A stretch of 64,000 nt of DNA, taken from assembly GCA_963716725.1 (NCBI GenBank), contig CAVQUB010000010.1:139873-203872 (forward strand). Reading direction: 5' to 3'. Below the pieces are notes generated by a model. It was not told the DNA's origin. It did not search any database and was given only the letters and a program-made list of their open reading frames with translations. Of this stretch, positions 6,954 through 51,998 are shown piece after piece; within the stretch, counting starts at the first letter, position 1, and every line of letters starts with the position of its first letter. This stretch comes from an uncultured delta proteobacterium (lineage in GTDB: Bacteria; Myxococcota_A; Polyangia; Polyangiales; Polyangiaceae). Position numbers and translations under genes: made by a program.

Positions 6954-7121
6954 GGGAGCCTCCTCTGAGATGCTAAGCCGAGCCGTCAGGATAGCTAACC
7001 CCGACGACAAAGGAAAACCGCGCGCGGTGTACACCCAGGGCCCCAGCCCTGCAACCGCCGCGGGGGGCGCATGTGGGTCCCTCGGTGCCTGTTCGAGCCG
7101 AGGGCGGTTTGCTGCTGAAAA

Positions 7122-8549
7122 TCACTTCAGGCGGTAGACGACCTCGGAGCCCACCAACAGGTCGTGGGCCGCGCGTTTGTCGGACTGAAAGGCCGCCAAG
7201 GCGAGGCCCGCCGCGTACAGCAGGCTCAGGAGCACGTTCCCCAGAGCAACCGCCAGGACCAAGCCCTTGAAGGCGTCGACGTCCGTGAGCTGGATTTGCC
7301 GGATGGCGAGCTGCAACCCGCCGCGCCCCTCAGTCAGTAAAATCACGAGTCCGGCGAAGAACGGCAGCCACATGCTGGCCACGGTCCGCAACAGCGAACG
7401 CCCGACGCCCAGAGGACCTCCGTCAAGGCCCCGCACCCGTAGATTCATCAGCGCCTTGCCTAGGGTCTGTCCGCGAGTGGCGTGCGCGGCGGTGACGTAG
7501 GCCAAGTGCAAGAACAAACCTGGCAGACCCAAGAGGCCGATGACCAGACTCGCGAGAGCGACGTCGATGCCCACCGCGGCGCCGCGGACCCAGAAACCGC
7601 CGAAGCGCACCTTTTCGGGCGCGGCGGCGTCGAGCGCGGCGAGCAGGTCGTCGTAGCTCGGGAAGCGGTCATCGGGCGCCTTGGCCATCAAGCGCTCGAT
7701 GATCGATGCCAGGGGCTTCGGCGTGTCCGGGGAGGCGCTGGCGAGCTTGGGCGGCGGCTCGGTCAGATGCTTGCTGATGACCGCCACCGGCGTCTTGGCG
7801 TCGAAGGGCGGCTTGCCGGAGAGCAGGTGATAAAAGGTGCATCCGACCGAGTACATGTCCGCCCGGTGATCGATTTCGTCGCCTTTCGCTTGCTCCGGCG
7901 CCATGTAGAGCGGGCTGCCGACGACGGCGCCGTCGCGAGTGATCTTCGAGTCGGTGCCTCCAACGGGTTTCGCCACTCCGAAATCGGCGATCTTGACCGA
8001 GCCGTGCTTGTCGATCAGGAGGTTGCTCGGTTTGATGTCGCGGTGGATGATGCCCGCCGTCTGCGCGTCGCGCAGGCCGCGCGCCACCTGAATCATCAGC
8101 GCGCGGGCCCGTTCCGGCGCGATGCGCTCGTGGCGTTCGACGAAGCTCTCGAGATCCCCGCCGTCGACCAGTTCCATGGCGAAGAAGAGCGAGGTCTTCC
8201 CGCTCTCGTCCGCGGCGGGCGTTCGACCGATGTAGTAGATGTGTGCGACGTGCGGGGAGTTGAGTCGCGCCTGCGCCCGCGCTTCTCGCAAGAACCGCTC
8301 TTGGAGCTCGCCGCTCTCCGCGAGATCGTGGGGCAACACCTTGATGGCGACCCGGCGGTCCAGGGAGCGATCGTGCCCCGAATACACCGCGCCCATGCCG
8401 CCGCTGCCCAGGGGTTTGTCGACGTCGAAGTGGTCGAAGCGCTTTCCTACCCAGCGTCGGATGTCCGCGCTGGGTGGCTTGGATGTTGCGCGCGGACCAC
8501 TCTCGTCGAGCAGTGTGGTCTCGAATGCGTCAGCCCCTTGGACGCTCAT
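7122..8549 (-). CDS. Ser/Thr protein kinase fused to a C-terminal RDD-family membrane domain
   Basis: Kinase motifs LGSGGMGAVY, VAIK, HRDIKPSN, DFG, YMAPE. RDD hallmarks GFWVRGAAVGID, GQTLGK, KRAAHDLLVGS. Confidence 0.88.
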   Translation of the reverse strand: MSVQGADAFETTLLDESGPRATSKPPSADIRRWVGKRFDHFDVDKPLGSGGMGAVYSGHDRSLDRRVAIKVLPHDLAESGELQERFLREARAQARLNSPHVAHIYYIGRTPAADESGKTSLFFAMELVDGGDLESFVERHERIAPERARALMIQVARGLRDAQTAGIIHRDIKPSNLLIDKHGSVKIADFGVAKPVGGTDSKITRDGAVVGSPLYMAPEQAKGDEIDHRADMYSVGCTFYHLLSGKPPFDAKTPVAVISKHLTEPPPKLASASPDTPKPLASIIERLMAKAPDDRFPSYDDLLAALDAAAPEKVRFGGFWVRGAAVGIDVALASLVIGLLGLPGLFLHLAYVTAAHATRGQTLGKALMNLRVRGLDGGPLGVGRSLLRTVASMWLPFFAGLVILLTEGRGGLQLAIRQIQLTDVDAFKGLVLAVALGNVLLSLLYAAGLALAAFQSDKRAAHDLLVGSEVVYRLK

Positions 8550-15668: not shown

Positions 15669-16664
15669 ATGGGAGCCCTGGGCTGGCGCGCGGTGGTGGG
15701 AGCCAGCCTCGCGGTGCTCGGGGTACTCGCGCTGGGCCTGGCTGCGGGCGGCATCCGGCTCCTGCCGTGGCTCTGGGCGCCCGAGGTGCCGATAGAGGTC
15801 GCGCTGCCCTTTGCCCGGGCGCTCGGCGCCGCCGCCACCGAGACGGCGCTCGTGGTCGGGGCGCCGGTGGGTGCCGCCCTCGCGGTTGCGGGCTTCGTCG
15901 ACCGCGGCGAGGCCCGCGCGCTGTTCGCAGTGGGGGCATCGCCCCTGCGCCTGGTGCTGGGCGCATCGCCCCGCATCGCGGCATTCGTGTTGGCTGCCGC
16001 TCTGGTCGGCGCAGCTTGGGGCTCCAGCGCGGACGTCCCCGGTCGCTTCGCCGCGGAGCTGGTCGAGCAAGGACGCGCGAGCTGCGCCCGCGCCACATCA
16101 CCAAAGAGTGCGCAGGTCCCCTTGGTGGGAGTGACGTGGTTGTGTTTTCCGGGCGAGCCCCCGCGCGTGACCGGGGGGTTGCCTGGGCTTGGCGAGTTCG
16201 GTTCGTTCACTGCGCGAGCGCTCAGGCCGAGCGACGATCTGCGCCAAGTGCGCTTCGATGAGCTCCGCGTGTTCACGAGGAAGGTCGATGACCAGCCATC
16301 CCTCGAGCTGTCGGTGCAGACGGCGACGGTTCGCGGCCTGCCGGGTTGGGGACGGAGCGCAAAGCTCGGATTGGTCGTGCGGAGCGCCCTCTCGGCCGGC
16401 ACGGCCATGGTGCTCGTGCTCGGGGTGGTCTTCAGTGTGCTTCACCTCGGAGTCACGCGACGGCTTGGCGCGCTCGCCCTCGGCGGCCTCCCGTCGCTGG
16501 CCGCGTTCACGTCACTCTCGCGCTTCGACGCCAGCTCGCTGCCCGCGGCGGCGTGCCTTCTCGTCCCCTTCGTCGGAGCCGCGGCGCTGGTTGGGGTCGC
16601 GCTCGGGGCGCGAGCCTTTCCGGCGGATCTGCGCTGGCTCCGGCGGCTTTCCCGGCGACGCTGA
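15669..16664 (+). CDS. Membrane protein, possibly a divergent LptF/LptG-family permease
   Basis: 3 TM + soluble domain + 3 TM layout. The motif DRGEARALFAVGASPLRL resembles the LptF/G E..A....G.S..R motif. Confidence 0.5.
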   Translation: MGALGWRAVVGASLAVLGVLALGLAAGGIRLLPWLWAPEVPIEVALPFARALGAAATETALVVGAPVGAALAVAGFVDRGEARALFAVGASPLRLVLGASPRIAAFVLAAALVGAAWGSSADVPGRFAAELVEQGRASCARATSPKSAQVPLVGVTWLCFPGEPPRVTGGLPGLGEFGSFTARALRPSDDLRQVRFDELRVFTRKVDDQPSLELSVQTATVRGLPGWGRSAKLGLVVRSALSAGTAMVLVLGVVFSVLHLGVTRRLGALALGGLPSLAAFTSLSRFDASSLPAAACLLVPFVGAAALVGVALGARAFPADLRWLRRLSRRR

Positions 16665-16719
16665 CCGCGGTCCCAGCGCGTTGCCCGATCGTGCCGGCAA
16701 TGTTAAACGTCGCGCTCCC

Positions 16720-17007
16720 ATGGGTGCCGGCCCTTGGCAGCTCGCTGTCATCGCCCTATTGCTTCTCGTCTTCTTCGGCAGAAGCCGGCTGGGGGAGATC
16801 GGGCGTGGGCTCGGTCGAGGCCTGCGGGCGCTCCGCGAGAGCGTGAAGGCAAGAGACGGTGAGGCCGGAGACGACGATGACACCGACGATGACGACGACG
16901 AACCCGCGCTCCCCCGGCGACGCGCCGGCAAGGGCGAAACTGGAGTGAGGAGCCGCCGGCACGTGATGGCAAAGCCACGCGAGCCGGACTCCGAGGCCGA
17001 CGACTGA
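16720..17007 (+). CDS. tatA: Twin-arginine translocase TatA/TatE-family subunit
   Basis: MGAGPWQLAVIALLLLVFFG..RLGEIGRGLGRGLRALRESV gives a TM helix, FG hinge and amphipathic helix, followed by a charged tail. Confidence 0.75.
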   Translation: MGAGPWQLAVIALLLLVFFGRSRLGEIGRGLGRGLRALRESVKARDGEAGDDDDTDDDDDEPALPRRRAGKGETGVRSRRHVMAKPREPDSEADD

Positions 17008-17015
17008 AGGAGCTG

Positions 17016-18218
17016 ATGGTGCCAACGAACCTCGCAAAACGACTGGAAGCGGTGGCGCCGAGCGCGACCCTCGCGATGACCGCAAAGGCCGCGGAGCTCA
17101 GGGCGAAAGGCCGTAAGGTCTACGCTTTTGGCGTGGGCGAGCCCGACTTCGAGACGCCCGAGCACATCCGCCTCGCGGCGCAGGCAGCGATGGGCAAGAG
17201 TTCGCACTACACCGCGGTGCAGGGCACGGCCAGCCTGCGCGAAGCGATATGCGTCGCGACCGAACGGGACCGTGGGTGGCGGCCGACGCCGGACGCCGTC
17301 ACCGTATCGGTTGGAGCGAAACACGCACTCTTCAACCTGGCGATGGTGCTCTGTGACCCCGGTGACGAGTTCGTGATCCCCGCCCCGTATTGGGTGAGCT
17401 ACCCGGAGCAGGTGCGCTTGTTCGGAGGCGTCCCAACGATCGTCGAGACCAGCGCCGAGCGCGGCTTCCGCATGACTCCCGAGGCACTCGATGCGGCCAT
17501 CGGACCGCGGACCAAGGCCGTCATCTTGTGCACTCCGTCGAACCCGAGCGGAGCGGCCTACGACGCCGGCGAGCTCTTGGCTCTGGCCGAGGTGCTGAAG
17601 GCGCGCGACGTATGGATCGTGCTCGACGAAATCTACGGCGACCTGACCTACGAGGGTTTCGAGCACGTTTCGCTGGCCAAGCTGGCGCCGGAGCTGCGGG
17701 ACAAGATGATCGTGGTCGATGGCGTGAGCAAGACCTACGCGATGACCGGCTGGCGCATCGGCTGGTCCATCACGCCGCCGGCGCTGGCCAAGGCCCTGCT
17801 GAAGGTGCAGGGGCAGTCCACCACCAACGCCACCGCGATCGCGCAGGCCGCGGCGGAGGCAGCGCTGCTCGGTCCCCGGGAACCCATCGCCGAGATGGCC
17901 CGGATCTTCGCCGAGCGCCGGCGCCGAATGGTCGAGGGGTTGAACGGAATCCCGGGCATGCGCTGTGACTGGCCGCGCGGCGCGTTCTACGCGTTTCCCG
18001 ACGTCACGGGCCTCTACGGTATCCAGTGGGGCGACCGGCGGCTCGCGAGCGCGGACGACGTTTCGCTCTGGCAGCTCGAGGTCTGCGGGATCGCCGCGGT
18101 GGCGGGTGAGCCCTTCGGTGCGCCGGGCCACGTGCGCTACAGCTACGCTGCGGCCGAGTCCGTGATCGACGAAGCGCTCTCCGTCCTCGGCGCAGCGGTC
18201 GCTTCTGCAAAGCGTTGA
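17016..18218 (+). CDS. PLP-dependent class I/II (aspartate-type) aminotransferase
   Basis: GVGEPDF, PSNPSG, DEIY, SKTYAMTGWRIG (PLP lysine), GAFY. Confidence 0.93.
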   Translation: MVPTNLAKRLEAVAPSATLAMTAKAAELRAKGRKVYAFGVGEPDFETPEHIRLAAQAAMGKSSHYTAVQGTASLREAICVATERDRGWRPTPDAVTVSVGAKHALFNLAMVLCDPGDEFVIPAPYWVSYPEQVRLFGGVPTIVETSAERGFRMTPEALDAAIGPRTKAVILCTPSNPSGAAYDAGELLALAEVLKARDVWIVLDEIYGDLTYEGFEHVSLAKLAPELRDKMIVVDGVSKTYAMTGWRIGWSITPPALAKALLKVQGQSTTNATAIAQAAAEAALLGPREPIAEMARIFAERRRRMVEGLNGIPGMRCDWPRGAFYAFPDVTGLYGIQWGDRRLASADDVSLWQLEVCGIAAVAGEPFGAPGHVRYSYAAAESVIDEALSVLGAAVASAKR

Positions 18219-18225
18219 CCATCGA

Positions 18226-19128
18226 ATGTCGAACATGGCCGAGGCAGTGGATGCAGTGACCCGAACCCGAGATGCGACGCGCGTTGCCGGTGCGCTGTTT
18301 CAGCTCGCGAAGCCTGGCGTCACTCGCATGGTGCTGGTCACCACGGGCATCGGCGCAATCCTGGTGCCGGGCCGGATCGTGCTCCCGAGGTTGGCCCTGA
18401 CCGTGACCGCGACCGCCGCGGTGGTCGCGGCGGCCAACGCTCTCAACATGTACCTCGAGCGTGACGTGGACGCCCGCATGGCGCGCACCCGGACCCGGCC
18501 GCTTCCGTCGGGACGTCTCTCACCGGAGGTGGCCCTCTGGTTCGGGGTCGTCCTGGCATTCACTGGGATTTCGGCCCTCACTTTCCTGATCAACCCCCTC
18601 TCCGGCCTGCTGTCCGCGCTGGCCATTTCTCTCTACGTCCTGGTCTACACGCCGCTCAAGCGCGTGACGCCCTACGCGCTCCACGTGGGCGCTATCCCCG
18701 GCGCCATCCCGCCCTTGATTGGTTGGGCCAGCGTGACCGGCGAGCTCTCGCTGCCGGCGCTGAGCGTGTTCGCCATCCTGCTCGTCTGGCAGATCCCACA
18801 CTTCCTTGCGATCGCGATCTTTCGCGCGTCCGAGTACGAGGCAGCGGGTCTGGCCGTGTATCCGTCGGTGCGGGGCGTGCCGGCCGCGAAGCGAGCAGTG
18901 ATCGCGTACTCATTTTTGTTGCTGGTGGTGAGCGGACTGCCCGTCGTCGCCGGAATCGGCGCGACTTGGTACCTTGGCGTCGCGGCTGTGCTCGGCGTGA
19001 CGCAGATCGTGATCGCGCTCCGGGGCCTGGTTGCCCCGGACCTGAGTCAGTGGGCTCGCTCGTTGTTCTACGCGACGCTTCCCTACCTGCTCGTGGTCTA
19101 CGGCGCCTTGGCGCTGACCGCGTCATGA
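18226..19128 (+). CDS. cyoE: Protoheme IX farnesyltransferase (heme o synthase)
   Basis: NMYLERDVDARMARTRTRPLPSG, YTPLKR, GAIPGAIPPLIGW, WQIPHFLAI. Confidence 0.93.
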   Translation: MSNMAEAVDAVTRTRDATRVAGALFQLAKPGVTRMVLVTTGIGAILVPGRIVLPRLALTVTATAAVVAAANALNMYLERDVDARMARTRTRPLPSGRLSPEVALWFGVVLAFTGISALTFLINPLSGLLSALAISLYVLVYTPLKRVTPYALHVGAIPGAIPPLIGWASVTGELSLPALSVFAILLVWQIPHFLAIAIFRASEYEAAGLAVYPSVRGVPAAKRAVIAYSFLLLVVSGLPVVAGIGATWYLGVAAVLGVTQIVIALRGLVAPDLSQWARSLFYATLPYLLVVYGALALTAS

Positions 19129-26989: not shown

Positions 26990-38038
<11,049 letters not shown>

Positions 38039-38278: not shown

Positions 38279-38340
38279 GCCTCGTCCGCCTCGTCCGCCT
38301 CGTCCGCCTCGTCCGCCTCGTCCGCCTCGTCCGCCTCGTC
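38279..38340 (+). repeat. Perfect 9-bp tandem repeat (GCCTCGTCC) x ~6.9
   Basis: Directly visible. Ends immediately before the GGAGA RBS of the WYL gene. Confidence 0.95.
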
Positions 38341-38353
38341 GGAGATCTTGCCC

Positions 38354-39393
38354 ATGGCCAAGCCGCTCGGCCGCCCGAAAGGGCGCTTCACTCAGCATCG
38401 CCGCCTCGACGTGGTGCGCGATCTTCTGGCTCGGCAGCCCCGCGGGCTCACGCTCTACGAGCTCGCCGACGCCATCGACGTGAGCGCGCGCACGATGCGC
38501 CGCTACCTGAAAGAGATGGAGCGCGAAGACGACCTCGAGAGCCACCAGGTGAAGGGCGGGGGGCGCTGCTCTGGCGCATCCGGCAGAGCGAGATCTCCCG
38601 CAAGGTCGAGCTCCGGCGCACGCAGGCCTACGCGCTGCTCGCGGCGCGTCGTCTGTTCGAGCCGATGCGAGGCTCGGCCCTGTTCGACGAGATCGATCTC
38701 GCCATCAACAAGCTGCTCGCGTTCGCCCAGCGTCCGGGGCGGGGGCCGAACGCGGGGCTCGCCGATGCGCGCCTCGAAGACCGCTTCTTGTACCTGCCCT
38801 TCGCGCCGAAAATGTACGCGGAGAAGACCGAAGAGCTCGACGACCTGTTCCAGGCGGTCTCCGATCTGCGGCCGCTCAGTCTCGCCTACCGCAGCGCTGC
38901 CAAGAAGACCGAAGAGCGCATCACCATCCATCCCTACGCGTTGGTGCTTCACCGCGACGCCATCTACTGCGTGGGCTTGCACGTCGACAAAGACGAAATC
39001 CGCACCTTCGTGCTCGACCGCATGCGCGACACGGACTGCGGGGTGTCCGAGCGCTTCACCTTGCCCGATGACTTCAAGATCGACGACTACTTTCAGGGGG
39101 AGTTGGGCATCTGGCGCAGCGAGACGCGGCACAAGGTGGTGATCGATTTCGACGCTCAAGGAGCCGACTACCTGCGCACGCGCAAGGTGCACGGCTCCCA
39201 GAAGCTGCAGGCCATCGCGGGTGGCGGCGTGCGGCTCAGCATGACCCTGGGGAATCTGAACCCCGTGGTGAGCTGGGCGCTCGAGTGGGGACCGCGCGCC
39301 AAGGTGGTGGAGCCCCCGGAGCTCGTCGAGAGGGTGCGCGCAGAGCTGGACCAGGCGCTGGCGCAGTACAAGAAGAAGCGCTCCAAGAAGTAG
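38354..39393 (+). CDS. HTH-WYL-WCX transcriptional regulator (PafBC/DriD-like architecture); apparent frameshift in a G6 run at 38558-38563
   Basis: N-terminal wHTH LTLYELADAIDVSARTMRRYL in one frame. WYL-type RITIHPYALV....IYCVG....EIRTFVLDRM and WCX-type WALEWGPRAKVVEPPEL in the other. Confidence 0.88.
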
Positions 39394-40156: not shown

Positions 40157-41806
40157 ATGCCCGAACGAGAGCCCCAGACCGATCGCCGCCGGCGCCGCCG
40201 CCGCGGCCCACCACAGAAGCCTCAGCAGTCCGCGGTCGCGGCCATCGCCGCGGCCAAGCCGCCGGTCGACGTGGCGAAGCCCGCCGACGCGCCCCTGTCC
40301 GAAGCAGAGGCCGCCGAGATGCGCGTGCACCTGCGTTTTCTCAAAGAGCATCGGAAGATCCTCGCGCTCAAGCTGAATGCGGCCGAGGACTTGCTGCTCA
40401 ACGGCGCGCGGGAGCCCACCCACCGCGGCGTGTGTCAGCACCTGCTCGACAAAGTCGAGAAGAGCCGGGTCGAGCTGGCCGCGCCGCGACTCGATCTCGG
40501 AAGTCGCATGCGCCTGCTCGAGGGCATCATCCGCTTCTCGCCGGACATCGCCTACCTGTTGCTCTACCTCGAGAGCCTCAAGGACGCCTCCCGTCCCGAT
40601 GCAGTGCCGGCGCTCACGGCTGCGCTGCGGCGCATCGACTTCGAGACGGTGAGCGCGGCACAGATGCGCCGGGTGCTCGACCTGATCGTGGAGCTCACCC
40701 GCGAGCGCGATCGACCCCAGCTCCTGTTCAGCCTGCTCTCGAGCTCGACCTTCCAGAAGGCCTTCGATGCTTCGGCCGAGCGCCTGCCGGACGCGCTTGC
40801 CGGCATCGTCGTGCCGCTGCGAGCTGCCCACGCGGTCATCGTGCGGGGCGCGCCGAACCCCACCGACGCCGACTCGCTGGCGCGCGGTGCGGAGATGCTG
40901 CTCTCGCTCCCCGAGAGTGTGCTGAGGAGCCAGTCGCCAGCGGTCTGTCGCCGGCTCTTCGAGGTCGGCATCGAGCTCGCCACCGAACCTCGGGACAAGT
41001 GCACCGCGGGCTTGCGCGTGCTCTTCGAGGCCATGCCGCGCGGCGATCGCGCCTACGCCGATGCCGCCCTCGCGCTGTCGCGCTGGCTGCTCGCGCGAGG
41101 CCTCGAGCGTGACGCCCGGGCGCTCTTCGCGGTCCTCGCCAAAGACAAGGTCGAGGTCCCACGCCACTGGGTCGTCGCCCTCGACGGCAAGCGCATCGGT
41201 GGCATCGGGCTCACGGAGCGACCACCGCGTGAAGACCCGAACCGGGCGCCCCGGGAGTCGTTCGTGAGCGGTGTGCAGCTGTCCAAGCAGCGGTCCGTGT
41301 GGCTGCGCGTCGGCGCGCCCTCCGACGTCGAGCGCTACGCGCGGGCAGCGGAGCTGTCCAAGAGCATCGCCCTGGTCGGCGTGGCGCCTGTCGTCGAGCA
41401 CGGGCTCACCGAGCAAGGCCAGCCCTACCTCGCGGTGGAGCATCACGGGCGCGCGGCCAACGAGGTCCTGCTCGGCAAATCGGGGACGACCAAGTCCTCG
41501 GCCCTCGCCCTCTGCGGCGAAGCGTCGGCGATCCTCGGGGCGCTGGGCCTGTGCGGGGTGCGGCTCCCCGACGTGCGCTTCCGTCGCTTCGCCGTCGATG
41601 ACCACGGACGGCTCTGGCTGCGCGACCTGATGGACGCAGAGCGCGCCGCCGACGCGGCGGAGCACAACACCCGGCTCGCCCTCGAGTTCTGTTTCGATGT
41701 GCTGACGCGAGTGCCGCGCTTGGCGCTTTCGAGCGCCAGCGAAGAGAGCCTGCGCGGGGCGACCGACACCGTCGCGCTCGCGCGGGCCCTGGAAGCGCTC
41801 GCCTGA
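40157..41806 (+). CDS. Hypothetical protein: helical N-terminal region plus degenerate kinase-like C-terminal region
   Basis: 549-aa ORF. GVAPVVEHGLTEQGQPYLAVE and GRLWLRDL resemble kinase subdomains without HRD/DFG. Confidence 0.65.
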   Translation: MPEREPQTDRRRRRRRGPPQKPQQSAVAAIAAAKPPVDVAKPADAPLSEAEAAEMRVHLRFLKEHRKILALKLNAAEDLLLNGAREPTHRGVCQHLLDKVEKSRVELAAPRLDLGSRMRLLEGIIRFSPDIAYLLLYLESLKDASRPDAVPALTAALRRIDFETVSAAQMRRVLDLIVELTRERDRPQLLFSLLSSSTFQKAFDASAERLPDALAGIVVPLRAAHAVIVRGAPNPTDADSLARGAEMLLSLPESVLRSQSPAVCRRLFEVGIELATEPRDKCTAGLRVLFEAMPRGDRAYADAALALSRWLLARGLERDARALFAVLAKDKVEVPRHWVVALDGKRIGGIGLTERPPREDPNRAPRESFVSGVQLSKQRSVWLRVGAPSDVERYARAAELSKSIALVGVAPVVEHGLTEQGQPYLAVEHHGRAANEVLLGKSGTTKSSALALCGEASAILGALGLCGVRLPDVRFRRFAVDDHGRLWLRDLMDAERAADAAEHNTRLALEFCFDVLTRVPRLALSSASEESLRGATDTVALARALEALA

Positions 41807-41903
41807 TCGGCGCGCCTACTCCGAGTCGGTCAGGTAGGTGTAGCTTCGCAGCGCCTGCTCGTAGTGCTGCATGAGCGTGCGCATCTGCTCGTTGGTCAGG
41901 CGT
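41567..41903. repeat. 337-bp direct repeat, left copy (3' end of 40157..41806 plus a non-functional copy of the speA 3' end)
   Basis: Matches 48730..49066 at a constant offset of 7163, with 8 substitutions counted by eye and no indels. Confidence 0.95.
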
Positions 41904-41926
41904 TCGGCACGAGATCGCCTCGATGC

Positions 41927-43426
41927 TCACGAACCCCCGACCCCACCCTTGCTGGGGTGGTGCTCGTCGTAGAGCGATGGGTACGCGCACTTCGAGGCGG
42001 CGTTCACGATGCGGTAGCCGATGAGCGGGTCGGACTGGTCGTCGTGGTCGAACGAGTCGCTGTAGTCGAGGAACCCGAACCACAGCTCGTCCTGGTAGCG
42101 GAGGAGCTGGAGGTTTCGGGCGTCGAGACCCGGCGAGAGCGACGTGTCGCAAGTGTCGGTGCGCCAACACGACTCAAACGAGTGGGTGACCACCGGCCGC
42201 TGCTCCGCGAGTGCGTCGCCTTCGATTTCGAACGCGTCGATGTGCGCGTGGATCTTGCCCATCATCATCCACCCCTTCGAGGTTCGCGAAAGCACCCGCT
42301 GGCGCATGCCTCCCGCAGGCTCGGGGATGACAATTGCGGGGGTCTCGGGCACGAAGCCGTTGAGACGTTGCACGTAGCTGTCGTTGTCGATGTTCTGTCC
42401 CATCCAGCCCAGCACCACCTGCTCCCCGTCCAGAGCAACCGCGGGCCACCCGGAGAACTTCGACGACTCTGGCGGAACTCCCTGCGCTGCGACCGCCCTG
42501 GCGAAATACGGGTCGTCGGGAAAGAGCGGCGTCCCGTCCCGCAGGTGGCCGCTGAGGCTCACGCCGCTGCCTCCGGGGTAGGCGAACACCGTCGTGCCCG
42601 TCACGGGATCGGTCGCGACGGAGAATGCGTCTTGCACCACGGCGGAGGACGCGACGACGTCGGGCCCGGAGAGCAACGTGCCGTCCGGGGAGAGCCGAAC
42701 CAAGCGAATGCCCCAGTCTTGCAGGCCGGGGTTGCTGAGCCCGAAGTGCAACGCGAAGGCCTCGCCGTCCCAGGCGATCTCCCAGAGGAAGAGCTCCGAG
42801 GTCGGCCAGGGTGGAGTCCACACCGTTTGCTTCTCGGGTTGGTCGAGACGGGTGAGAAGGATCTTTTGGATTGGATCCGCGGCGAGTGATGGTCGGTACC
42901 CAATTCCAATGGCAGTTGTCCCGTCGGGCGAAACCGCCACGTCTGCAACTGCACCGCTCAAAACCCATGGCGAGATCCCTTCGGGGAATACGTCGTAGAT
43001 GGCGTGGCCAAAGGTCGCGCCGCTGGATCCGGGGAACGTAGTCAGGACCATGTGCGCCGTGAGTCGCTCGGAGTCGCTCGGGTCGACACTGTAGGCACTC
43101 CACACCATGTGGAGACCGGTCGCGTCCCTCCAGAACGGGTGCACGGGGAGATGGGTGCTCCTGATCGACACCGAGGCCCAGGTGCGTGTGGGCGGGAGCA
43201 TGGAGACACTCACCCTGTACTCCACGCAATCGCTGCTCGCCTCACCACCGGTTCCGCCCCCGCCTGCGTCGCACACGCAGGGCTCACCCGGCTCGGCGCC
43301 AGCTTCTTCGCCGTCGCTGCACCCGATCAGGCTCAGCGCAAGCAGCGCGACGTAGGCCCAGCGCGCGAGCCCGGCCGGGTCGTCGCAGGCGCGCGTTGCG
43401 CCACTCCCTGCCGCGGGTGGCTTCAA
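41927..43426 (-). CDS. Putative lipoprotein, beta-rich (propeller-like)
   Basis: Likely TTG start overlapping the upstream stop (TTGA) with a GAGGGG RBS. Lipobox SLIGC. Repeated strands EIAWDGEAFALHF / PAVALDGEQVVLGW. Confidence 0.7.
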   Translation of the reverse strand: MKPPAAGSGATRACDDPAGLARWAYVALLALSLIGCSDGEEAGAEPGEPCVCDAGGGGTGGEASSDCVEYRVSVSMLPPTRTWASVSIRSTHLPVHPFWRDATGLHMVWSAYSVDPSDSERLTAHMVLTTFPGSSGATFGHAIYDVFPEGISPWVLSGAVADVAVSPDGTTAIGIGYRPSLAADPIQKILLTRLDQPEKQTVWTPPWPTSELFLWEIAWDGEAFALHFGLSNPGLQDWGIRLVRLSPDGTLLSGPDVVASSAVVQDAFSVATDPVTGTTVFAYPGGSGVSLSGHLRDGTPLFPDDPYFARAVAAQGVPPESSKFSGWPAVALDGEQVVLGWMGQNIDNDSYVQRLNGFVPETPAIVIPEPAGGMRQRVLSRTSKGWMMMGKIHAHIDAFEIEGDALAEQRPVVTHSFESCWRTDTCDTSLSPGLDARNLQLLRYQDELWFGFLDYSDSFDHDDQSDPLIGYRIVNAASKCAYPSLYDEHHPSKGGVGGS

Positions 43427-46400
43427 AGCTCGAGCCCCTCGGCCTCGGCCCACGCCGCGAGAGTTCGCTCCAGCTCCAACGCTTCTTCAAGGGCCTCTCG
43501 CGCCTTGTGTTTGTTCGGAGTGTGCAGCAGCGCCCAGGCCTTGGTCTTCTCGGCGGCGATTTTGTTCAGTGAGATCAACGCTCCCAGCGCGCGCTTGTCG
43601 TGCTTCTGAGCCAAGAGCACCAGCATCTTCGACCTCGACTTGGCGACATGGATCAGCGAGCCCGCGATCAGCGCTCGCGCTGCGTGGTGCTCGCCGCCGT
43701 CGAGTCGGTCGAGAGCGCGCTCCTCGAGCGCGATCGCCTCGTCGACTTCGGCCTGGGCCGCGACCCGCAGAGGCAGCATGACGGGAGGGGACTCGTTACC
43801 CGCGCCGTCTTTCACCTTGACCCAGATCGCCGCTGCGGGTTGATCCGCCAGCGTCAGTGTGGGGCCAGAAGAAAACGGCTGCCAGGTCGCGCCCTCGAAG
43901 TCGGAGCGCAACGCGATCATCATCGACGGCGTTCCGGTGCTCGCGATCCCGTCGCATGCCGGTCCGTGACCGCGATGTCGACTTGGCTCGTCGGTGGCAG
44001 CGAGCCGCAGCTCCACTCGGCGCGTCCGCGTCCAGGTGCGCCCATCGGCGAGCTGGACGGTCACCTCCGGAGCGATTGGATCCCGCCGTGGGATCACGCA
44101 GGTGGGGGCGGACCAAGGGCCGACGTGTCCAGACACCGACACGCGGGTCCGGAAGCAGCTCGATTGGTCGTTCGGCGAGGCCAGCTCGATGGTCGTGGCG
44201 CCGGCCAGCGGCCGCTCCGCCATCACGGCGAACGGAGCGGTGCGCGTGGGCGCGTTCGCGACCATCAGCGTCGCCCCGGAGACGCCTGGCGGAGCCAGCG
44301 CGGTCACGATCACGGAGTCGTTGCACGCGGTGACCACTGGTTGGACGTCGAGCCGCACGTCGTCGCGGCCGTCGTGCGGATCCAGCCCGAGCGCGGCTTC
44401 CGAGCCATCGCTCTCGCCGCCGCCGTCGCTGTCCGGTTGCAGCGGATCGGTGTGAGCAACGAATTCTTCGTGACTGGGCAGTCCGTCGCCGTCCGGATCT
44501 GCCTCTCCGTCCGCGACGCCCGGGTTGGTGCCCTTCTGGAGCTCCCACCAATCCGGCATCCCGTCGCCATCGGTGTCCGCGCCGTCGTGCAGCGCGGTGA
44601 CGTGCCAGCGCTCGCGCTTGAAGGGGTGGCCGGCCGTCGAAAGACCGGTGGCCACCACCCGGATCCGATACACGCCGGCCTCGCTGCCGCCGAAATAGCG
44701 CGCTGCGTAGACCCCATCTCCCTCCCTCCCGTCCCCGTGGTCGCCATCGTCGAACAGCGTGAGCGACGCCAGTGCTCCGCTCGGGCTCTCGACCTCCGCC
44801 TTCACGAACACACCGGCCAGCGGCAGTGTCTCCAGCACCGCCGCGCGGAGCATCAAGTCGAGCCCGACCCAACTGCTGTTCTCCGTCGCGTCGGCGGTCG
44901 CTTCGATGGCTCGCTCGTGCGTCGGGTGCACGCGCGAGATGAGACTGATGGCCGCACCGCGCAGCGCTGCTTCGACGAAGGTGGAGGGTTGCCCGCCAGG
45001 CAGCGGCACGTACACCGGGGGAGCGGTGAATCCGGAATGCTCCCACTCCCAGGTCCACTGCCCGGCGGGCGGCAGAGCGACCTTGAAGACCGAGCCGGGC
45101 GTCTGCTGAACCGGCGGGATGGCGACCCCGTTCGGAGCGACGAGACGAAGTCGGGACGCGAGATCGACCGGATCGCCCAGGGTCGAGTACACGGAGACGA
45201 GCAGCTCCTTCGCTCCGGGCTCGACCTGGATCGGCGGCAGCTCGGTCGGATCGGGGGTCAGGGGTCGCGTCGCGAGCACGCGTTCGTGACCGCTCGCCCG
45301 GTTCATCGCGCTGCGGAACGCGTCTGCGAACTCCAGCCGGTGGAACGTCTCGAGGCTCGGGACGGCCACCGGCGGATCGTCATGGCTATAGGCGAACACC
45401 CCGCCACCGATCTCGGCGAGGTTCCCCAGCTCGACCGTGTCCGCGTCTGCTCCAATTGCGATCGCCGATACGATCGGGACTCGTTGTTTTGCGGCCTTGC
45501 GCTTCCAGTAGGCCAAGTTCCCACTGAACCACGGCAGGTTGTCGCTCGGGTCGGGATCCGTGTCACCGGATGGCAGCATCGAACCGTCCGTGTTCGCTTC
45601 GGGCTCGAAGTCCTGGAGATAGTACCGGCGTGGCTCCCAGCCCGCGTTGTTCTTCCCATCCGAGAGCACGCTCATGTGCAGCAACACGTCGGTGGGGGGC
45701 GCGCTGCCGTACGCGAGCGCTAGGTTGGACTGCGCCTCGAGGACGCCGTCGCCGATGGACGTCCAGCCGGGAGGAGCCGTGATCAGATCGACCGCGGCGT
45801 TGAAGACGCCACGCCCGAGGGGCGTCATCTTCAGGTAGGGCACGCTCATTCCCCCGATCAGGGTCTGGGCGTCGTTGTTGAAGGTGACGAGCCCCACTTC
45901 GTCGCTCACGGTCATCGCTTCACCCAGCAGCTTGGCGGCGTCTTTCATCGCCTGCAGCTTGCCCAGCGAGTTCATGCTGCCGCTTTTGTCGAGCACGAAC
46001 TGGGTCACGAGTCGCGTGCTCGCGTTCATGGCCAGCGCACCGCTCTCGGTGTCCGAGACGATCCCGATCCCGAACTCTTCCGCGGACACGACCAGATCCA
46101 AGGCGCCCGGCAGCGTAGACGGATAGAACGCCGGCGGCACTTCGCCGAGCGCCCAGTAGAGTCCCGAGCCCAGGTTGGTGATGGTGAAGTCCGTGCCGTT
46201 CACCAGCGCGCAGGCCGGCGCCTTCGGGCCCGCGCACCCCGGCGTTCGGAGCTTGAAATTGCTGGGAGCCAAGCCGCTCAGCGGCTCGTTGTTCTCGTCA
46301 CGAACCACGAACTGCGCCACGAACGACCGCGGGGCCTGGGGATCTCCGATCTGGGCCGGTCGCACCGAGAGCGGATCGAGGATCTCGAGTCGCGGATCGA

Positions 46401-48468
46401 CCTCGCCGATCAGCCACTTGAACGACGCGGCCTTGCGCCCGGCGCTCGCCAGCACGAGCACCTCGTCGTAGGTCCCCACCGGGACCGGGATGTCGAACGT
46501 GCCCGTCGCGTCGAGGGGACACATGCCCGTCTTAGCCGGCTTCTTGCCGTCGGGGTCGATGTTGCAGCCCTCGACGATCATCGGGACGCCGTCCGTCTTG
46601 ACCAGAAACAGGCGGAAGCGCGGCTGGGTGGACTTGGTCGCGATCAATCGTACGCGCGCCAGACCCAGACCCTTGCCGGGATGGAACGACAGCAGCGTCG
46701 TTCCAAACGGCTGCAGGGTGATCTCGCTGTCGCTGGCGAAGCCTTGCCCGGGCAAGAGCGATACGCGCGAGGGAGTGCACTTGTTCCCGGTGCATACGGC
46801 GTAGTTGTCCAGCTCGCGTTTGGCGCGGCGCAGGTAGTCCTTGCCGATCCCCACCAGATCGCCGGGGACCTCGAGCTTGCCGCCGGCCGCGGCTTTCCAC
46901 GTGGACAGCGGCGGTTCGGGCTTCGGCGTCTTGGGCACGAGGGCGCTCCCCGCCCCCGCGTTCGCGTCGCCCACCCACTGGAAGAACCAGCGCAGATCGT
47001 CGGTCGAGTAGTCCTTCAGCAGCGCGGCGGTGTGCAGGTCGAGGATCACGGCTTCCAGACCGCGGCCAAGCTCCTTGGTGAGCACGGCGTCCACCACGTC
47101 GAGGGCCGGCTTCGCGGGCGCAGCCTTGAGGCCCTGAAATACGTGCCCGAGGAAGTCGGCGCCCTCGTCGGAGCGGCGGAAGCCGAGGGCCTTGAACGGG
47201 TCGGCCAGGATTGCCGACTCGCTCGACGCCGGGTGCGCGGCGGTGCCTGTGGGCATCGAATATTGCTCGATCGCGTAGCGCCAGAACACGCTGCCGACGT
47301 AGCTCCAGTTCACCGGATCGCTGTTCGGCGTCAGCAGCCAGTGATTGGTGTTCCCGACGCTGCCGATGGTGTTCTCACCGAGCTTGCGCGACGACACGCA
47401 CTGCTCCGGCTTCACGCCGGGGTAGTTGAACAGACACATGAAGGCGTCCACGCCGACCGGCGCCGTTTCGGCGAAGGAGACGTCGAACTGCTGGGTCGTC
47501 CCGTACGCCCGCTGCCATGCACCCTGCAAGTTGTGGAAGAACTCGTGCCCCATGAAGGCGAGCTGCACGCCTGCAGCGACAGACAGGTTTTGGACTCCGG
47601 AGAGATCGGTCCTGAGGAAGAACTGTCCGAGCCCTCCGTGGGCGGCACCGTCGTCGGCGAACGCCCAGACCAACGTCGGGCAGTATGACCCGCTGCACGC
47701 CTTGCTCGAGCCGTTGGCCCAGACCGGGGGCGTGATCTTGGGGGATGGCAAGGACGGAAAGAGCCCTGACTCTTGCCAATCTGCGATGCCGGGCATCCGC
47801 TCCACCACGAACTTAGTGCCCGCCGCGTCCACACACGCCTGCGTCGCGTTGGCGCCGCTCTTGTTGCCCTGCGTGCAGACGTCCCCAAGGAGCCCGCCGA
47901 ACGGATCCTTCACCGTGCTCGGCACGGCCAGCACCTTGAACTTCGGCACGCCGTCCAAGGGCTGTGCGACCGGACACCAGCCGCCGACGTTGAGCGCGCT
48001 GAGCGTGCTCTCTTCGTTGACCTTGAGGAACAGGAACGTGCCGGCATTGTTCGCGTCGTCCCAGTCGAAAGGGAGCCCCGGGGTCTGCTCTGTCGCTCCG
48101 GGCACGCTGAACGACTTGACCCACGTCGCGTTTGCCGGCTTGCCGCCGGGCTTGGCCGTGTCGTCGAAGACCAACCAGTCGAGATCCGGTACCGACTCCG
48201 ACGCGGGACACTTGACCTTGCCGCTCGGGGACACGCGACAGATCTCGAGCCGGGTGGTCGCCTGCAGGGCGGCTGCCTTGTCCGGATCATCGGCGGCGCT
48301 GCGGGTCACCCAGCCGTACTGGATGCGCACGCTCCGCTGCGCCGCCGTCGCCCCGAGCACTCCGGTTCCGCTTTGTGGCGACGCGACGCCGATGCAGCGC
48401 GACACCTGCGCCCGCAGCGGCTCGGCCGCGCTCACCGGCGCCGCCCAGAGCGCAAAACCAAGAGCCAC
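43423..48468 (-). CDS. Giant secreted HEXXH metallopeptidase-like / VWA / Ca-binding repeat protein with CLCA-like C-terminal architecture
   Basis: 1681 aa. Signal-peptide end ..WAAPVSA, GHEFFHNLQ, FVLDKSGSM..TSIGDG..LSDGKNN, LFDDGDHGDGREGDGVYAARYF, DTDGDGMPDWWE/DPDGDG/DSDGGG repeats. The true start may be GTG 48541 with a one-base error near 48503. Confidence 0.82.
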   Translation of the reverse strand: MALGFALWAAPVSAAEPLRAQVSRCIGVASPQSGTGVLGATAAQRSVRIQYGWVTRSAADDPDKAAALQATTRLEICRVSPSGKVKCPASESVPDLDWLVFDDTAKPGGKPANATWVKSFSVPGATEQTPGLPFDWDDANNAGTFLFLKVNEESTLSALNVGGWCPVAQPLDGVPKFKVLAVPSTVKDPFGGLLGDVCTQGNKSGANATQACVDAAGTKFVVERMPGIADWQESGLFPSLPSPKITPPVWANGSSKACSGSYCPTLVWAFADDGAAHGGLGQFFLRTDLSGVQNLSVAAGVQLAFMGHEFFHNLQGAWQRAYGTTQQFDVSFAETAPVGVDAFMCLFNYPGVKPEQCVSSRKLGENTIGSVGNTNHWLLTPNSDPVNWSYVGSVFWRYAIEQYSMPTGTAAHPASSESAILADPFKALGFRRSDEGADFLGHVFQGLKAAPAKPALDVVDAVLTKELGRGLEAVILDLHTAALLKDYSTDDLRWFFQWVGDANAGAGSALVPKTPKPEPPLSTWKAAAGGKLEVPGDLVGIGKDYLRRAKRELDNYAVCTGNKCTPSRVSLLPGQGFASDSEITLQPFGTTLLSFHPGKGLGLARVRLIATKSTQPRFRLFLVKTDGVPMIVEGCNIDPDGKKPAKTGMCPLDATGTFDIPVPVGTYDEVLVLASAGRKAASFKWLIGEVDPRLEILDPLSVRPAQIGDPQAPRSFVAQFVVRDENNEPLSGLAPSNFKLRTPGCAGPKAPACALVNGTDFTITNLGSGLYWALGEVPPAFYPSTLPGALDLVVSAEEFGIGIVSDTESGALAMNASTRLVTQFVLDKSGSMNSLGKLQAMKDAAKLLGEAMTVSDEVGLVTFNNDAQTLIGGMSVPYLKMTPLGRGVFNAAVDLITAPPGWTSIGDGVLEAQSNLALAYGSAPPTDVLLHMSVLSDGKNNAGWEPRRYYLQDFEPEANTDGSMLPSGDTDPDPSDNLPWFSGNLAYWKRKAAKQRVPIVSAIAIGADADTVELGNLAEIGGGVFAYSHDDPPVAVPSLETFHRLEFADAFRSAMNRASGHERVLATRPLTPDPTELPPIQVEPGAKELLVSVYSTLGDPVDLASRLRLVAPNGVAIPPVQQTPGSVFKVALPPAGQWTWEWEHSGFTAPPVYVPLPGGQPSTFVEAALRGAAISLISRVHPTHERAIEATADATENSSWVGLDLMLRAAVLETLPLAGVFVKAEVESPSGALASLTLFDDGDHGDGREGDGVYAARYFGGSEAGVYRIRVVATGLSTAGHPFKRERWHVTALHDGADTDGDGMPDWWELQKGTNPGVADGEADPDGDGLPSHEEFVAHTDPLQPDSDGGGESDGSEAALGLDPHDGRDDVRLDVQPVVTACNDSVIVTALAPPGVSGATLMVANAPTRTAPFAVMAERPLAGATTIELASPNDQSSCFRTRVSVSGHVGPWSAPTCVIPRRDPIAPEVTVQLADGRTWTRTRRVELRLAATDEPSRHRGHGPACDGIASTGTPSMMIALRSDFEGATWQPFSSGPTLTLADQPAAAIWVKVKDGAGNESPPVMLPLRVAAQAEVDEAIALEERALDRLDGGEHHAARALIAGSLIHVAKSRSKMLVLLAQKHDKRALGALISLNKIAAEKTKAWALLHTPNKHKAREALEEALELERTLAAWAEAEGLEL

Positions 48469-48587
48469 CGCGATCGCGGCTGTCGAGCTGCCGGCGTTGA
48501 GGCCCGACGAGCGCGAGCCGCCGCGGCTGCGAGTCCGCCACGAACGGTCAAGCCACCGCGCACCGGCAACACGGCACGAAACGTGCT

Positions 48588-48606
48588 CTGCCTGCCTGCC
48601 TGCCTG
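48588..48606. repeat. (CTGC) x 4.75 microsatellite upstream of the island genes
   Basis: ctgcctgcctgcctgcctg, adjacent to the palindrome GCACG-AAA-CGTGC (48574-48586). Confidence 0.8.
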
Positions 48607-48729
48607 AGTTCACCCCTTGCTCCCCCTCCATCACGCCACCTCCACCTGTGATGCGACCAGAGTCGAATCATTCGGTCAAGGCGTCGTGGGCAGACGCGCG
48701 CGAGCGGCAGAAAACGGCTCGCGACCTGG

Positions 48730-49066
48730 CCCGACGTGCGCTTCCGCCGTTTCGCCGTCGATGACCACGGACGGCTCTGGCTGCGCGACCTGATGGACGC
48801 AGAGCGCGCCGCCGACGCGGCGGAGCACAACACTCGGCTCGCCCTCGAGTTCTGTTTCGATGTGCTGACGCGAGTGCCGCGCCTGGCGCTCTCGAGCGCC
48901 AGCGAAGCGAGCCTGCGCGGGGCGACCGACACCGTCGCGCTCGCGCGGGCCCTGGAAGCGCTCGCCTGATCGGCGCGCCTACTCCGAGTCGGTCAGGTAG
49001 GTGTAGCTGCGGAGCGCCTGCTCGTAGTGCTGCATGAGCGTGCGCATCTGCTCGTTGGTCAGGCGT
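48730..49066. repeat. 337-bp direct repeat, right copy (truncated remnant of the 40157..41806 3' end plus the functional speA 3' end)
   Basis: ORF 48736..48969 repeats the last 77 aa of 40157..41806 with one E/A change. Confidence 0.95.
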
Positions 49067-50890
49067 CCGCTCTGGACCGCGCGCTCGGCTTGCTTGCGCA
49101 CCGCCTCGACCATGCCCTCCGGCTGATACTCCACGTAGCGCAGCACGTCGGCGATGCTGTCGCCCTTGACCACGTGCCGAACCTCGTAGCCCTCTTCGGT
49201 GAGGCGCACGTGCACGGCGTTGGTGTCACCGAAGAGATTGTGCAAGTCCCCGAGGATCTCTTGGTATGCGCCGTTCAGGAACATGGCCATGAAGTAGGGC
49301 TCGTCCGGCCGGTAGTCGTGGACCTCGAGCACCTGCTTGTCCTCCTCGACGTCGATGAAGCGATCGATCATGCCGTCGCTGTCGCAGGTGAGATCGGCCA
49401 AGCGAGCGGTCACCGTCCGGCTGCTCGTCGAGCCGGTGGATGGGCATGATCGGAAAGAGCTGATCGATGGCCCAGATGTCCGGCGCCGACTGGAACAGGC
49501 TGAAGTTGCAGTAGTAGATGCTGCTCATCGTGCGGTCGAGATCCCAGAGCTCTTCGGGCACGAACTTGAGCTTCTTGACCTTGCTCTGGATCTTCTCGCA
49601 GCAGTTCCAGAATAGGCGTTCGGCGCCGGCGCGCTCGCGCAGGCTGAGGTAGCCGTACTTGAACAGGTTCTGCGCTTCTTCTTTGGCCTGCGTCGCGTCG
49701 TGCCAGGACTCTTGGACGTTCTTTGCGCTGATGCCCTTGTAGGTCTCGTAGAGATCCTTGAGCAGCCGGTGGGCTTCGGGCTTGGGCTCCACCGGGGCGC
49801 CAAAGCGCACCTCGTTCACGCCCACCACCTCGAAGACCAGCATCGAATGGTGCGCGGCGACGGCCCGCCCGCTCTCGCTCACCAGCGTCGGGCACTCGAC
49901 GTCGGACTTGTTGCAGGCGGCCTGGACGTGGGCGACCACGTCGGCGGCGTACTCCTCGAGGGTGTAGTTCCTCGAAGCGTGGAAGTCCGTCTTCGATCCG
50001 TCGTAGTCGATGGCGAGGCCGCCGCCCACGTCGAGGTAGCCCATCTTGCAGCCCATCTTCGCCAGCTCGGTGTAGATGTTCGCGGCCTCTTGGATCGCGT
50101 TCTTGATCGGGATGATGCTGGAGATCTGGCTGCCGATGTGGAAGTGCAGGAGCTGCAGGCAGTCGAGCATGTCCTTGGCGGCCAGGCGGTCCACCAGCTC
50201 GACGATCTCGGTCATGGTCAGGCCGAACTTCGCGCGGTCTCCCGCCGAGTTCGCCCAGCGCCCGACGCCCTTGGCGCTGAGCTTGCTGCGCACGCCGAGC
50301 AGGGGCCGGATCCCCAGCTTCTCCGTGGCACGGAACACGTGGTCGAGCTCTTCGATGCGCTCGAGCACGACGATCACCTGCTTGTCGAACTTCTGCGCGA
50401 CCAGCGCGGTCTCGATGTAGTGCAGGTCCTTGTAGCCGTTGCAGATGATCAGGCCGCCGACGTCCTGCATTGCCGCCAGGGCGATCAAGAGTTCGGGCTT
50501 GCTGCCGGCTTCGAGCCCGAATTGCCACGGGCGTCCGAACTCGACGACGTCTTCGATCAAGTGCCGTTGCTGGTTCACCTTGACCGGGAACACGCCGCGA
50601 TAGATGCCTGGGTACTCGTACTCGACGATGGCGCGCTCGAAGGCCTCGTTGATGTGCTTGATGCGGTGTTCGACGATGTCGCTGAAGCGGATGAGCAGCG
50701 GCAGGTCGAGCCCACGAGCCTCGAGGTGCTGCACCAACTCGAACAGGTTGATGTTGCGGGGCCGGGTCGGATCCGGCGCGACCTGCACATGACCCTCGTC
50801 GCTCACGCTGAAGTAGGGCAGACCCCAACCTTGGATTTGGTAGAGTTGCGCGCTCTTCTGCGGGCTCCAGGGCTCTCCGTTTTCGACCAT
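48979..50890 (-). CDS. speA: Biosynthetic arginine decarboxylase; apparent frameshift near 49415
   Basis: FPVKVNQ (PLP Lys), GLEAGSKPEL, CNGYKD, LHFHIGSQI, DVGGGL.IDYDG, SESGRA, NFSLFQS.PD.WAIDQLFP, then DLTCDSDG and GAYQEILGDLHNLFG in a second frame. Confidence 0.93.
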
Positions 50891-51009
50891 CTCGTTCAAC
50901 TTGCCTCCCGGGCGGCGTCGACACGCTCGTGACCACTTTCGTTCGCCGGACGAGCAGGCGAAGCAAACGTCGGAATCGGGCGCATCGCAAGCGATAATCC
51001 GGCGGCGGG

Positions 51010-51998
51010 TCAGCCCGGCGCCCAGAGCGTCGTTGGTAGGCCGCCGCGTTTCCACAGGGCCAGCAGGTCCATCAGACAGCGCGACGGTGATGTGCACCAG
51101 GAAGCCCGAGTAGATGCTCCGCGTGCGCATGGCCAGGCTCCCGAGCACGACGCCCGCCACGATGGCGCCGTGGGCCTCGAGGTAGGGCTTGCCGTAGTGG
51201 ATCATGCAGTAGGGAACCGCCATCACGAAGATGGCGCTGGCCCCCATGCTCTTTCGGAGCGCGCCCACTATCCAGCCACGGAAGAAGGCCTCGAGCGCCA
51301 GGAACTGCACGAAGTAGATGGCCTCCCAGGTCAGGAAGTCGAACCAGCTCCGGGAGCTCTGCTTGTAGAACGGGTAGTAACCGCCGAAGTCGGGCTGCGA
51401 CGCCACCAGCAGCATGGCCGGCAGCACGAAGGCCAGACACAGCCCGTAGATCCAGAGGTGGCTGAAGAAGCCTCTCACCCGAAAGCCCATGTCGAGCAGC
51501 TTGTCGTCTGGGGAACAGCAGCTTCCACAGGGGCAGGGGGATGATCACGTAGCCGAGGACGCGGCTCGAGACCCACCAAGCGTAGCCGTACAGCTCGTCG
51601 TACTTCGCGAGCTTCACGAAGCTCCAGCCGCCGCGTTCCAGATCGGCGAGCATGGGGCGGACCAGCTGGTCGTAGATCTGGCGACCGCCGTAGTACTCTT
51701 GAAGCGTCAGCACGACCGCGGCGATGAGCAGACAGGCCGCGGGCCGCAGATCGTGCTTGCCGGCCTGGACGAGCAGGGCGCGATGCTCGGCGGCGTCGCG
51801 ATCGAGCTCCCGCCAGGTGTCGCGAAAGAAGCGCCAGATCAGCGGGGCGATCAGGCACAGGATGGGCAGGGGCAAGAGCGCCTTGATCGGCGGGTAGCCG
51901 AGCAGCGCGTCCCACCAGGACCGGAGCGCCAGCGGAGCGAGCGGCAGCGTCAGCCCATCGGACAGCTCTGGTCCCAGCGTGGCGAGCCCGTCGAGCAT
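51010..51998 (-). CDS. CPBP (Abi/CAAX type II) intramembrane glutamic protease; apparent frameshifts near 51505 and 51073
   Basis: LEAFFRG, MIHYGKP.LE, RTRSIYSGFLVH motifs and multiple TM helices. Confidence 0.8.

Follow-up and report, generated by a model that had tools for sequence, protein, structure and literature searches.

The stretch analysed here (the window) comprises 64,000 nucleotides of contig CAVQUB010000010.1, positions 139,873 to 203,872, from an uncultured delta proteobacterium of the Polyangiaceae (GCA_963716725.1). This source genome (G000) is a frameshift-prone metagenome assembly of 7.9 Mb in 35 contigs, 84% complete and with 3.9% contamination. Two convergent genes of the window, a conserved hypothetical gene (gene X) and speA, are separated by an insert with a gene for a large VWA protein and a lipoprotein gene, which is enclosed by two direct repeats, here called arms (Table 1). 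Exactly two copies of the arm and one of the insert are found in G000. The arms align without gaps at an offset of 7163 with 8 substitutions (329/337), as first annotated, and the similarity breaks off sharply at both edges. Their content was also described correctly: gene X is represented by its final 79 codons with the stop and speA, across a short gap, by its final 28 codons, also with the stop, and both host genes are intact. The same differences were listed again, 7 of the 8 being synonymous and the single amino-acid change being E530A.

Table 1. Features of the insertion locus, in coordinates of the window.
Feature	Coordinates	Strand	Description
Gene X	40157..41806	+	Intact; codes for a conserved hypothetical protein of 549 aa; allele of the 3' half unlike that of other same-species records
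Arm 1	41567..41903	+	337 bp, with the live gene X end, the 9-bp gap and the displaced tail of speA
Dead speA tail	41816..41902	-	28 terminal codons with the stop; differs from the live copy by two synonymous changes
Insert	41904..48729	-	6826 bp, 67.5% GC; two coupled genes
Lipoprotein, 499 aa	41927..43426	-	Lipobox-like LIGC (read from the sequence); TTG start overlaps the upstream stop; predicted beta-propeller
Secreted protein (putative), 1681 aa	43423..48468	-	Signal-peptide-like start, HExxH zinc-peptidase-like region (GHEFFH), VWA, choice-of-anchor X, TSP3 calcium-binding repeats
Non-coding 65 bp, candidate regulatory region	48622..48686	-	Upstream of the VWA gene; 89% shared with the cassette remnant of G005 C95
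Arm 2	48730..49066	+	337 bp: displaced gene X tail, gap, live end of speA
Dead gene X tail	48730..48969	+	Last 79 codons and stop, A530
speA, arginine decarboxylase	48979..50902 (start approximate)	-	Pfam PF02784/PF17810/PF17944

The comparison with related genomes shows an insertion, as had been proposed. In 4 of 6 congeners (G001, G002, G003 and G005), gene X abuts speA with a single arm, and in G004 and G006 gene X is located elsewhere. An empty site also exists within the species, since a single contig of the public run X10 joins 41817 to 48981. Half or more of the sequence words occur in 5 of the 22 public runs listed, which come from two studies, and 4 of these runs were compared (X17-X20, with small shares, were left out). 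A short-read contig of X1 runs from the cargo into arm 2 (47015-48882) with 0 differences. X5, from another study, has arm-1 letters, cargo pieces and the arm-2 letters of speA, again with 0 differences, and its 41318-41765 are identical to the window. X16 contains cargo pieces diverged by 1-3% together with gene-X letters of the X10 type, at a depth of ~2 that is too thin to place them.

The structure is not an obvious assembly chimera. The junction between arm 1 and the cargo is not among the contig pieces listed, which together with the frameshift-prone assembly would suit an artificial joining of two co-occurring strains. However, X1 crosses from the cargo into arm 2, X5 agrees with it, and both novel junctions would have to exist anyway, so that we consider such a chimera extremely improbable. 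Carriage by a phage was also rejected, the VWA protein being encoded in 0 of 206 candidate stretches of viral contigs.

The arms are alleles, as had been interpreted: we found arm-2 letters in the live gene X of X10 and in the proteins P0003, P0110 and P0112, the dead gene-X tail sharing three letters, A530 among them, with live same-species alleles. In X10, the live gene carries the arm-2 letter at 41720, 41728 and 41745 (arm-2 positions 48883, 48891 and 48908). The A530 of the dead tail is present in the same-species P0003, P0110 and P0112, while P0113 has E. At least 7 synonymous changes out of 8 are expected with P = 0.0004-0.0013 under purely neutral change, and with P = 0.009-0.021 under a fairer null in which the duplicate starts identical and the live copy keeps synonymous changes only. 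Other displaced tails in G000 are also rich in synonymous changes (30 of 45 codons, in ungapped cases placed by a filter of open reading frames (ORFs), among 38 repeat pairs). Arm 1 is probably the incoming allele and arm 2 the resident one. The outgroup letters at the 8 arm sites were discarded as a marker of direction, with derived states in both arms.

These alleles bear on whether an identical copy could have arisen locally, in break repair or template switching, and acquired its differences later by decay and gene conversion from other strains. Its first step needs no donor, later allele exchange could supply the synonymous differences, and the composition of the insert is host-like, since its tetranucleotide distance lies at the 76th percentile of 300 random genome stretches. 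On the other hand, decay alone fits the synonymous differences poorly, as the fairer null indicates, and cannot explain arm-2 letters in live alleles; if allele exchange is added, this explanation merges into the one that we favour below. We regard a local origin as very improbable.

Gene X of the window also differs from that of X10 beyond the arm. Between 41045 and 41817, 29 of 773 letters differ, whereas the four pieces compared downstream differ at 21 of 2098 (Fisher 3e-6, descriptive). Of the differences listed, 13 precede the arm, and 7 of these fall within 50 bp of its start. The divergence is one-sided relative to the insert, with 12 of the 29 sites beyond those listed and the direction not fixed, and it suggests that the foreign tract was longer than the duplication. 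The proteins P0003 and P0110 match gene X without a difference up to residue 251, and all their differences lie after it. They also have an in-frame insertion of 18 or 27 residues at codon 294 (window 41039) which is missing from the window and from 3 congeneric proteins.

Given the divergence upstream of the arm, a linear donor whose homologous anchor extended beyond the arm seems more likely than a circle with 337 bp of homology. The initial annotation, whose interpretation is supported in part, had proposed integration of a circle by a single crossover. A circle of cassette plus arm, either a trimmed and re-circularised donor or one excised from a carrier, would give the same final structure with allelic arms, and a longer arm may have been trimmed later to 337 bp. 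The trimmed circle has a precedent in E. coli conjugation, where 56 of 60 clones had duplications, of 109-950 bp in the 14 sequenced, ascribed to a single crossover of a trimmed and re-circularised donor (PMC3240628, section 12). The genome also has ku and a match to ligD near the cut-off. However, a 337-bp arm predicts resident sequence upstream of 41567, yet this stretch diverges from the strain with the arm-2 letters. No circle joint is found among the assembled-contig joints listed, and the arm is not common to different loci. We find this route possible but somewhat unlikely. The further claim of re-excision is supported in so far as a crossover of one arm with the other would leave gene X and speA with complete ends.

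Members of the VWA family were detected in 20 of 301 genomes of the taxonomic family, including 5 of 7 within the genus; of the 27 other places listed, 14 were tested, plus a remnant in G005. A repeat of at least 40 bp and at least 83% identity around an insert of up to 11 kb (the raw criterion) was present at 6 of the 14 loci versus 2 of 300 random G000 windows; related genomes are not independent of each other, and a single genome served as the control. Repeats of the target type occur at 3 of 8 other loci of the genus, two of them in G002 (46 bp and 164/191 bp) and one in G003 (143 bp). The 164/191-bp and 143-bp repeats are the 3' ends of unrelated genes, and these target genes have a single tail and no cassette within the fetched loci of 3 of 3 and 4 of 4 congeners. 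The two cassettes of G002 are 89-91% alike and their arms are unrelated. Related cassettes therefore share no att target, being found at unrelated loci with unrelated arms.

A 601-bp repeat at C2 of G006 was set aside as a transposase-like piece, as read from its translation, and two cases were left unclassified, a 255-bp repeat within a larger duplication (G157) and an intergenic one of 81 bp (G115). No repeat was found at G147, G090, G116, G020, G102, G003b and G005 C29, C71 and C95, several of them on short contigs. A scan of genome contigs with the VWA alignment gave 9 distant, non-myxobacterial loci among 600 candidates. Since the VWA family occurs at other loci in congeners, some of which have repeats of their own, the arm is target DNA. 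The idea of a self-targeting cassette with a fixed arm was not sustained: the same gene pair is found elsewhere with other, locus-specific repeats or with none.

Further rearrangements were noted in congeners. In G005 C95 (L022:8971-11421), a decayed cassette retains the lipoprotein, a 3' stub of the VWA gene and the 65-bp element upstream of it; no long repeat remains there, and the site is empty in G000 (C2 ~21900). Beside the VWA cassette of L029 (G003), there is a 204-bp repeat of 99% identity at a gene 3' end (931-1134/2962-3165) and a 272-bp repeat of 96% identity at a gene 5' end (2692-2963/6525-6796). In L025 of G002, a 137-bp repeat of 88% identity (7423-7557/7963-8099) is a displaced WYL gene tail around ~400 bp, and this junction is single in the window (39307-39393).

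The absence of a mobility gene claimed for the insert was confirmed by Pfam and NCBIfam searches, from which an unknown enzyme family could escape. The 38 alternative-frame ORFs over the insert have 0 Pfam family matches, and no nuclease or methyltransferase family was matched in the two cargo genes. No tRNA was found within the window and no integrase at the insert end, the nearest tyrosine recombinase on the contig being ~114 kb off. An inverted pair at the insert ends is missing among the 25 longest of 104 repeats. We found no terminal motif common to the cassette ends, whose junctions are 16-35 bp past the lipoprotein stop.

Hairpin-ended elements are recurrent in these genomes. They are ~130-210 bp long, end in GGGGAGGCAG-N4-A and variants, and have displaced gene tails of differing length directly after them. 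This family has 30 profile matches at E<=0.01 in G000, none of them on the contig of the window. In G006 (L027:5140-5663 and 6783-7305), two displaced speA tails, each with a hairpin element ending in GGGGCAACAAA directly before it, surround a small insert of two genes, presumably a toxin-antitoxin-like pair; the speA end is a recurrent target within the genus. In G003 (L077:6924-14235), an array of three hairpin elements lies behind a CAAX-protease-like gene, just before a VWA cassette. The hairpin-end profile did not exceed 1.6 bits in the insert or 3.7 at the ends of the G002a, G002b and G003a cassettes, whereas the positive control reached 46.7; on these scores the family was rejected for the insert ends.

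Two other repeats deserve mention. At C23 of G000 (15687-18527), a 366-aa gene, which we take to resemble Rpn/YhgA nucleases, has its C-terminal 79-87 codons repeated twice ahead of it, with cargo separating the two copies. The last 50 bp of the insert resemble three C23 repeats (42.8 bits versus a maximum of 40.1 in 100 shuffles), a marginal match which covers the stop region of an unrelated gene and was not used. Near the end of the G002b cassette, a palindromic repeat of 45-50 bp (L076:5557-5606) is multicopy in the genus, with 16 matches in G000, and is not present in the insert.

The locus could also be a remnant of an element driven by an integrase or nuclease, either an integrative island with a replacement gene end or a hairpin-ended unit, which no longer has its enzyme and ends or was mobilised in trans. 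Consistent with it are the 19 tyrosine-recombinase matches in the genome, the hairpin ends directly before displaced gene tails at many loci, including the speA tails of G006, and the marginal resemblance to the C23 repeat. Against it are the low profile scores in the insert, the cassette junctions without common sequence, the varying arm lengths and the lack of any relic in the 38 ORFs. We hold this origin to be quite doubtful. Since the junctions have no common sequence, the arms are locus-specific and the hairpin end is missing, self-targeting would be limited at most to the species, after a first insertion.

Taken together, we suggest, with a confidence just above even, that a passive two-gene cassette was inserted with a long target duplication by host recombination and no enzyme of its own, through an exchange with DNA of a carrier strain that was anchored by homology at one end and joined at arm 2 at the other. 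The cassette would first have been joined illegitimately beside the junction of gene X and speA in some strain. A linear fragment with that strain's gene X 3' half, speA tail and cassette would then have entered a strain with an intact locus. There, RecA would have exchanged a homologous anchor at least ~0.5 kb longer than the arm, while the far end was joined to the start of arm 2 or crossed over there, with the resident tail pushed downstream. Only duplications that span the 9-bp gap and leave both genes whole would have survived. The repeats could then permit loss, amplification or further spread between strains via ordinary recombination. As the gap between the stops is so short, a duplication spanning it spares both genes and any other kills one; we infer that the sparing of both genes can be a survivor bias instead of targeting. 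The same point on survivors is made in section 15 of PMC2853133.

Several observations weigh against this homology-anchored exchange. Regarding X10, its letters were read at 3 of the 8 arm sites, 12 of the 29 differences falling beyond those listed, and it carries changes (41785, stop region) that neither arm has. The upstream divergence of gene X, which is less conserved than speA, could have come from independent recombination. The mirror direction, with the speA side incoming, also fits, so the transfer direction is not fixed. Among the other loci, no empty site was shown for the 46-bp arm of G002, a target-type repeat is missing at 5 of 8 in the genus (at one of these, a transposase-like repeat takes its place), and the dead tails of G002b and G003a show non-synonymous changes and a deletion. 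No microhomology was found outside the arms, and the initial homology-free join is left without explanation. The genome has recA (2), comEC, dprA and ku, with a ligD match just under the cut-off; these genes permit either route and show neither, since uptake and end-joining genes are common.

A more specific idea is that Polyangiaceae have a dedicated gene-capture route, with an enzyme in trans or encoded by the host, that places unmarked cargo behind gene ends via a foreign end allele. The VWA-lipoprotein pair would reuse this route, leaving duplications of 46-337 bp with no integrase, nuclease or terminal motif. We consider it unlikely; if true, long target duplications would be independent of restriction enzymes.

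Concerning the cargo, the 1681-aa protein has Pfam matches to VWA and TSP3_bac and a choice-of-anchor X match over the cut-off (NF041940). The GHE(F/Y)FH motif is kept in 3 of 3 aligned homologs. For the HExxH region, the nearest Atlas clusters are DUF6055 / Peptidase_M30 at 0.93-0.95, which is a lead only, and no sequence match with a solved structure was found for the protein. It could be a secreted calcium-binding zinc peptidase or adhesin, as its domains suggest. In CLCA proteins, a peptidase-like N-terminal region is followed by a VWA domain and a choice-of-anchor X motif. The cargo protein has these parts in the same order, unlike them in its extra TSP3 repeats and in a TIGR00868 (CLCA) score of 42.6 bits, far below the cut-off of 900.85, on which membership was rejected. 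The lipoprotein has an exact sequence on record with the TTG start. Its AlphaFold2 model is all-beta with a mean pLDDT of 77.8 and its Foldseek matches are generic propellers with 7-14% identity, pointing to a predicted beta-propeller fold. Upstream of the VWA gene, we found no sigma-70 consensus and no convincing sigma-54 site; C7 and other matches near 48570-48606 were dismissed as a CTGC microsatellite.

As for the neighbouring genes, no Pfam or NCBIfam family matched gene X, which has 108 homologs, the close ones labelled Polyangiaceae. A metagenome scan with it gave 5 loci among 451 candidates, 0 of them from the same species. On a related metagenome contig (L031:7640-7820), a palindromic insert of ~170 bp with GTACGA/GTACTC repeats lies between gene X and speA. 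The frameshift at 49415 in speA is an assembly error, the extra base being missing from the contigs of X1, X5 and X10, and so is the extra base at 51075, missing from the same runs, which fuses a CAAX-protease gene to speA. Two substitutions of the window, at 51293 and 51436, are read otherwise in X1, X5 and X10. Further upstream, the window has a tandem duplication of ~2.9 kb (30126-33032 / 34175-37063; 95% identical, offset ~4040) with a heavily frameshifted, cysteine-rich MopE-repeat gene, and a 9-bp tandem repeat of ~7 units (38279-38341) immediately 5' of the WYL gene.

Among known systems, classical homology-facilitated illegitimate recombination (HFIR) deletes target DNA and gives no duplication (PMC3240628). 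The E. coli system of the same paper matches the size class of our duplication, but is a laboratory plasmid built with a homology arm (frequency ~6e-9 per recipient). A displacement of gene ends of the HFIR type was proposed for Vibrio T6SS effector-immunity arrays and for Rhs loci (PMC5361080). There too, a homologous anchor and a non-homologous join push resident sequence downstream, with later spread by ordinary recombination; however, in Vibrio the module replaces a toxin domain of its own family, whereas here unrelated cargo sits behind housekeeping-type genes. In unconventional circularizable structures (PMC7843796), too, long direct repeats other than transposition genes enclose the cargo. 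They are defined by circles detected by PCR and mostly carry resistance genes inside mobile elements, whereas our evidence comes from assembled contigs, with no circle joint among those listed. The literature covered, in part and with supplements that may hold closer cases, has no report of a VWA-lipoprotein cassette or of such scars in myxobacteria.

The closest class is the insertion with long target duplication (Furuta 2010, PMC2853133), whose inserts carry restriction-modification genes; its Table 3 lists repeats of 417/423, 388/397, 384/412 and 195/208, and the repeats of the class frequently include a start or stop codon while the gene itself stays complete. As in that class, the duplication (337 bp) exceeds 30 bp, the insert (6826 bp) is below 20 kb, an empty site with one repeat copy exists in other genomes (G001, G002, G003, G005 and X10), no mobile-element gene was matched, and the repeat is two-copy and imperfect. 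On the other hand, the two cargo genes include no restriction and modification genes, the arm covers two convergent gene ends, and the allelic origin is shown via an empty strain of the same species. With four of the five features of the class found and the restriction-modification genes missing, the locus works like the class and is not a strict member of it. The formation of these duplications is still unproven, and the authors who catalogued them suspected DNA breakage by the carried restriction enzymes (section 18 of that paper). Such scars around a cassette without a nuclease, at several loci, point to host recombination instead. Although the organism is uncultured, which is a limit, the 8 allelic markers and the known empty strain mean that haplotype data could separate a linear anchor from a circle. 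The locus also shows a route by which surface and secreted proteins move among myxobacteria, unseen by island finders based on integrases. The scar type is already published, and what is unusual here is a cargo without a DNA-cutting enzyme.

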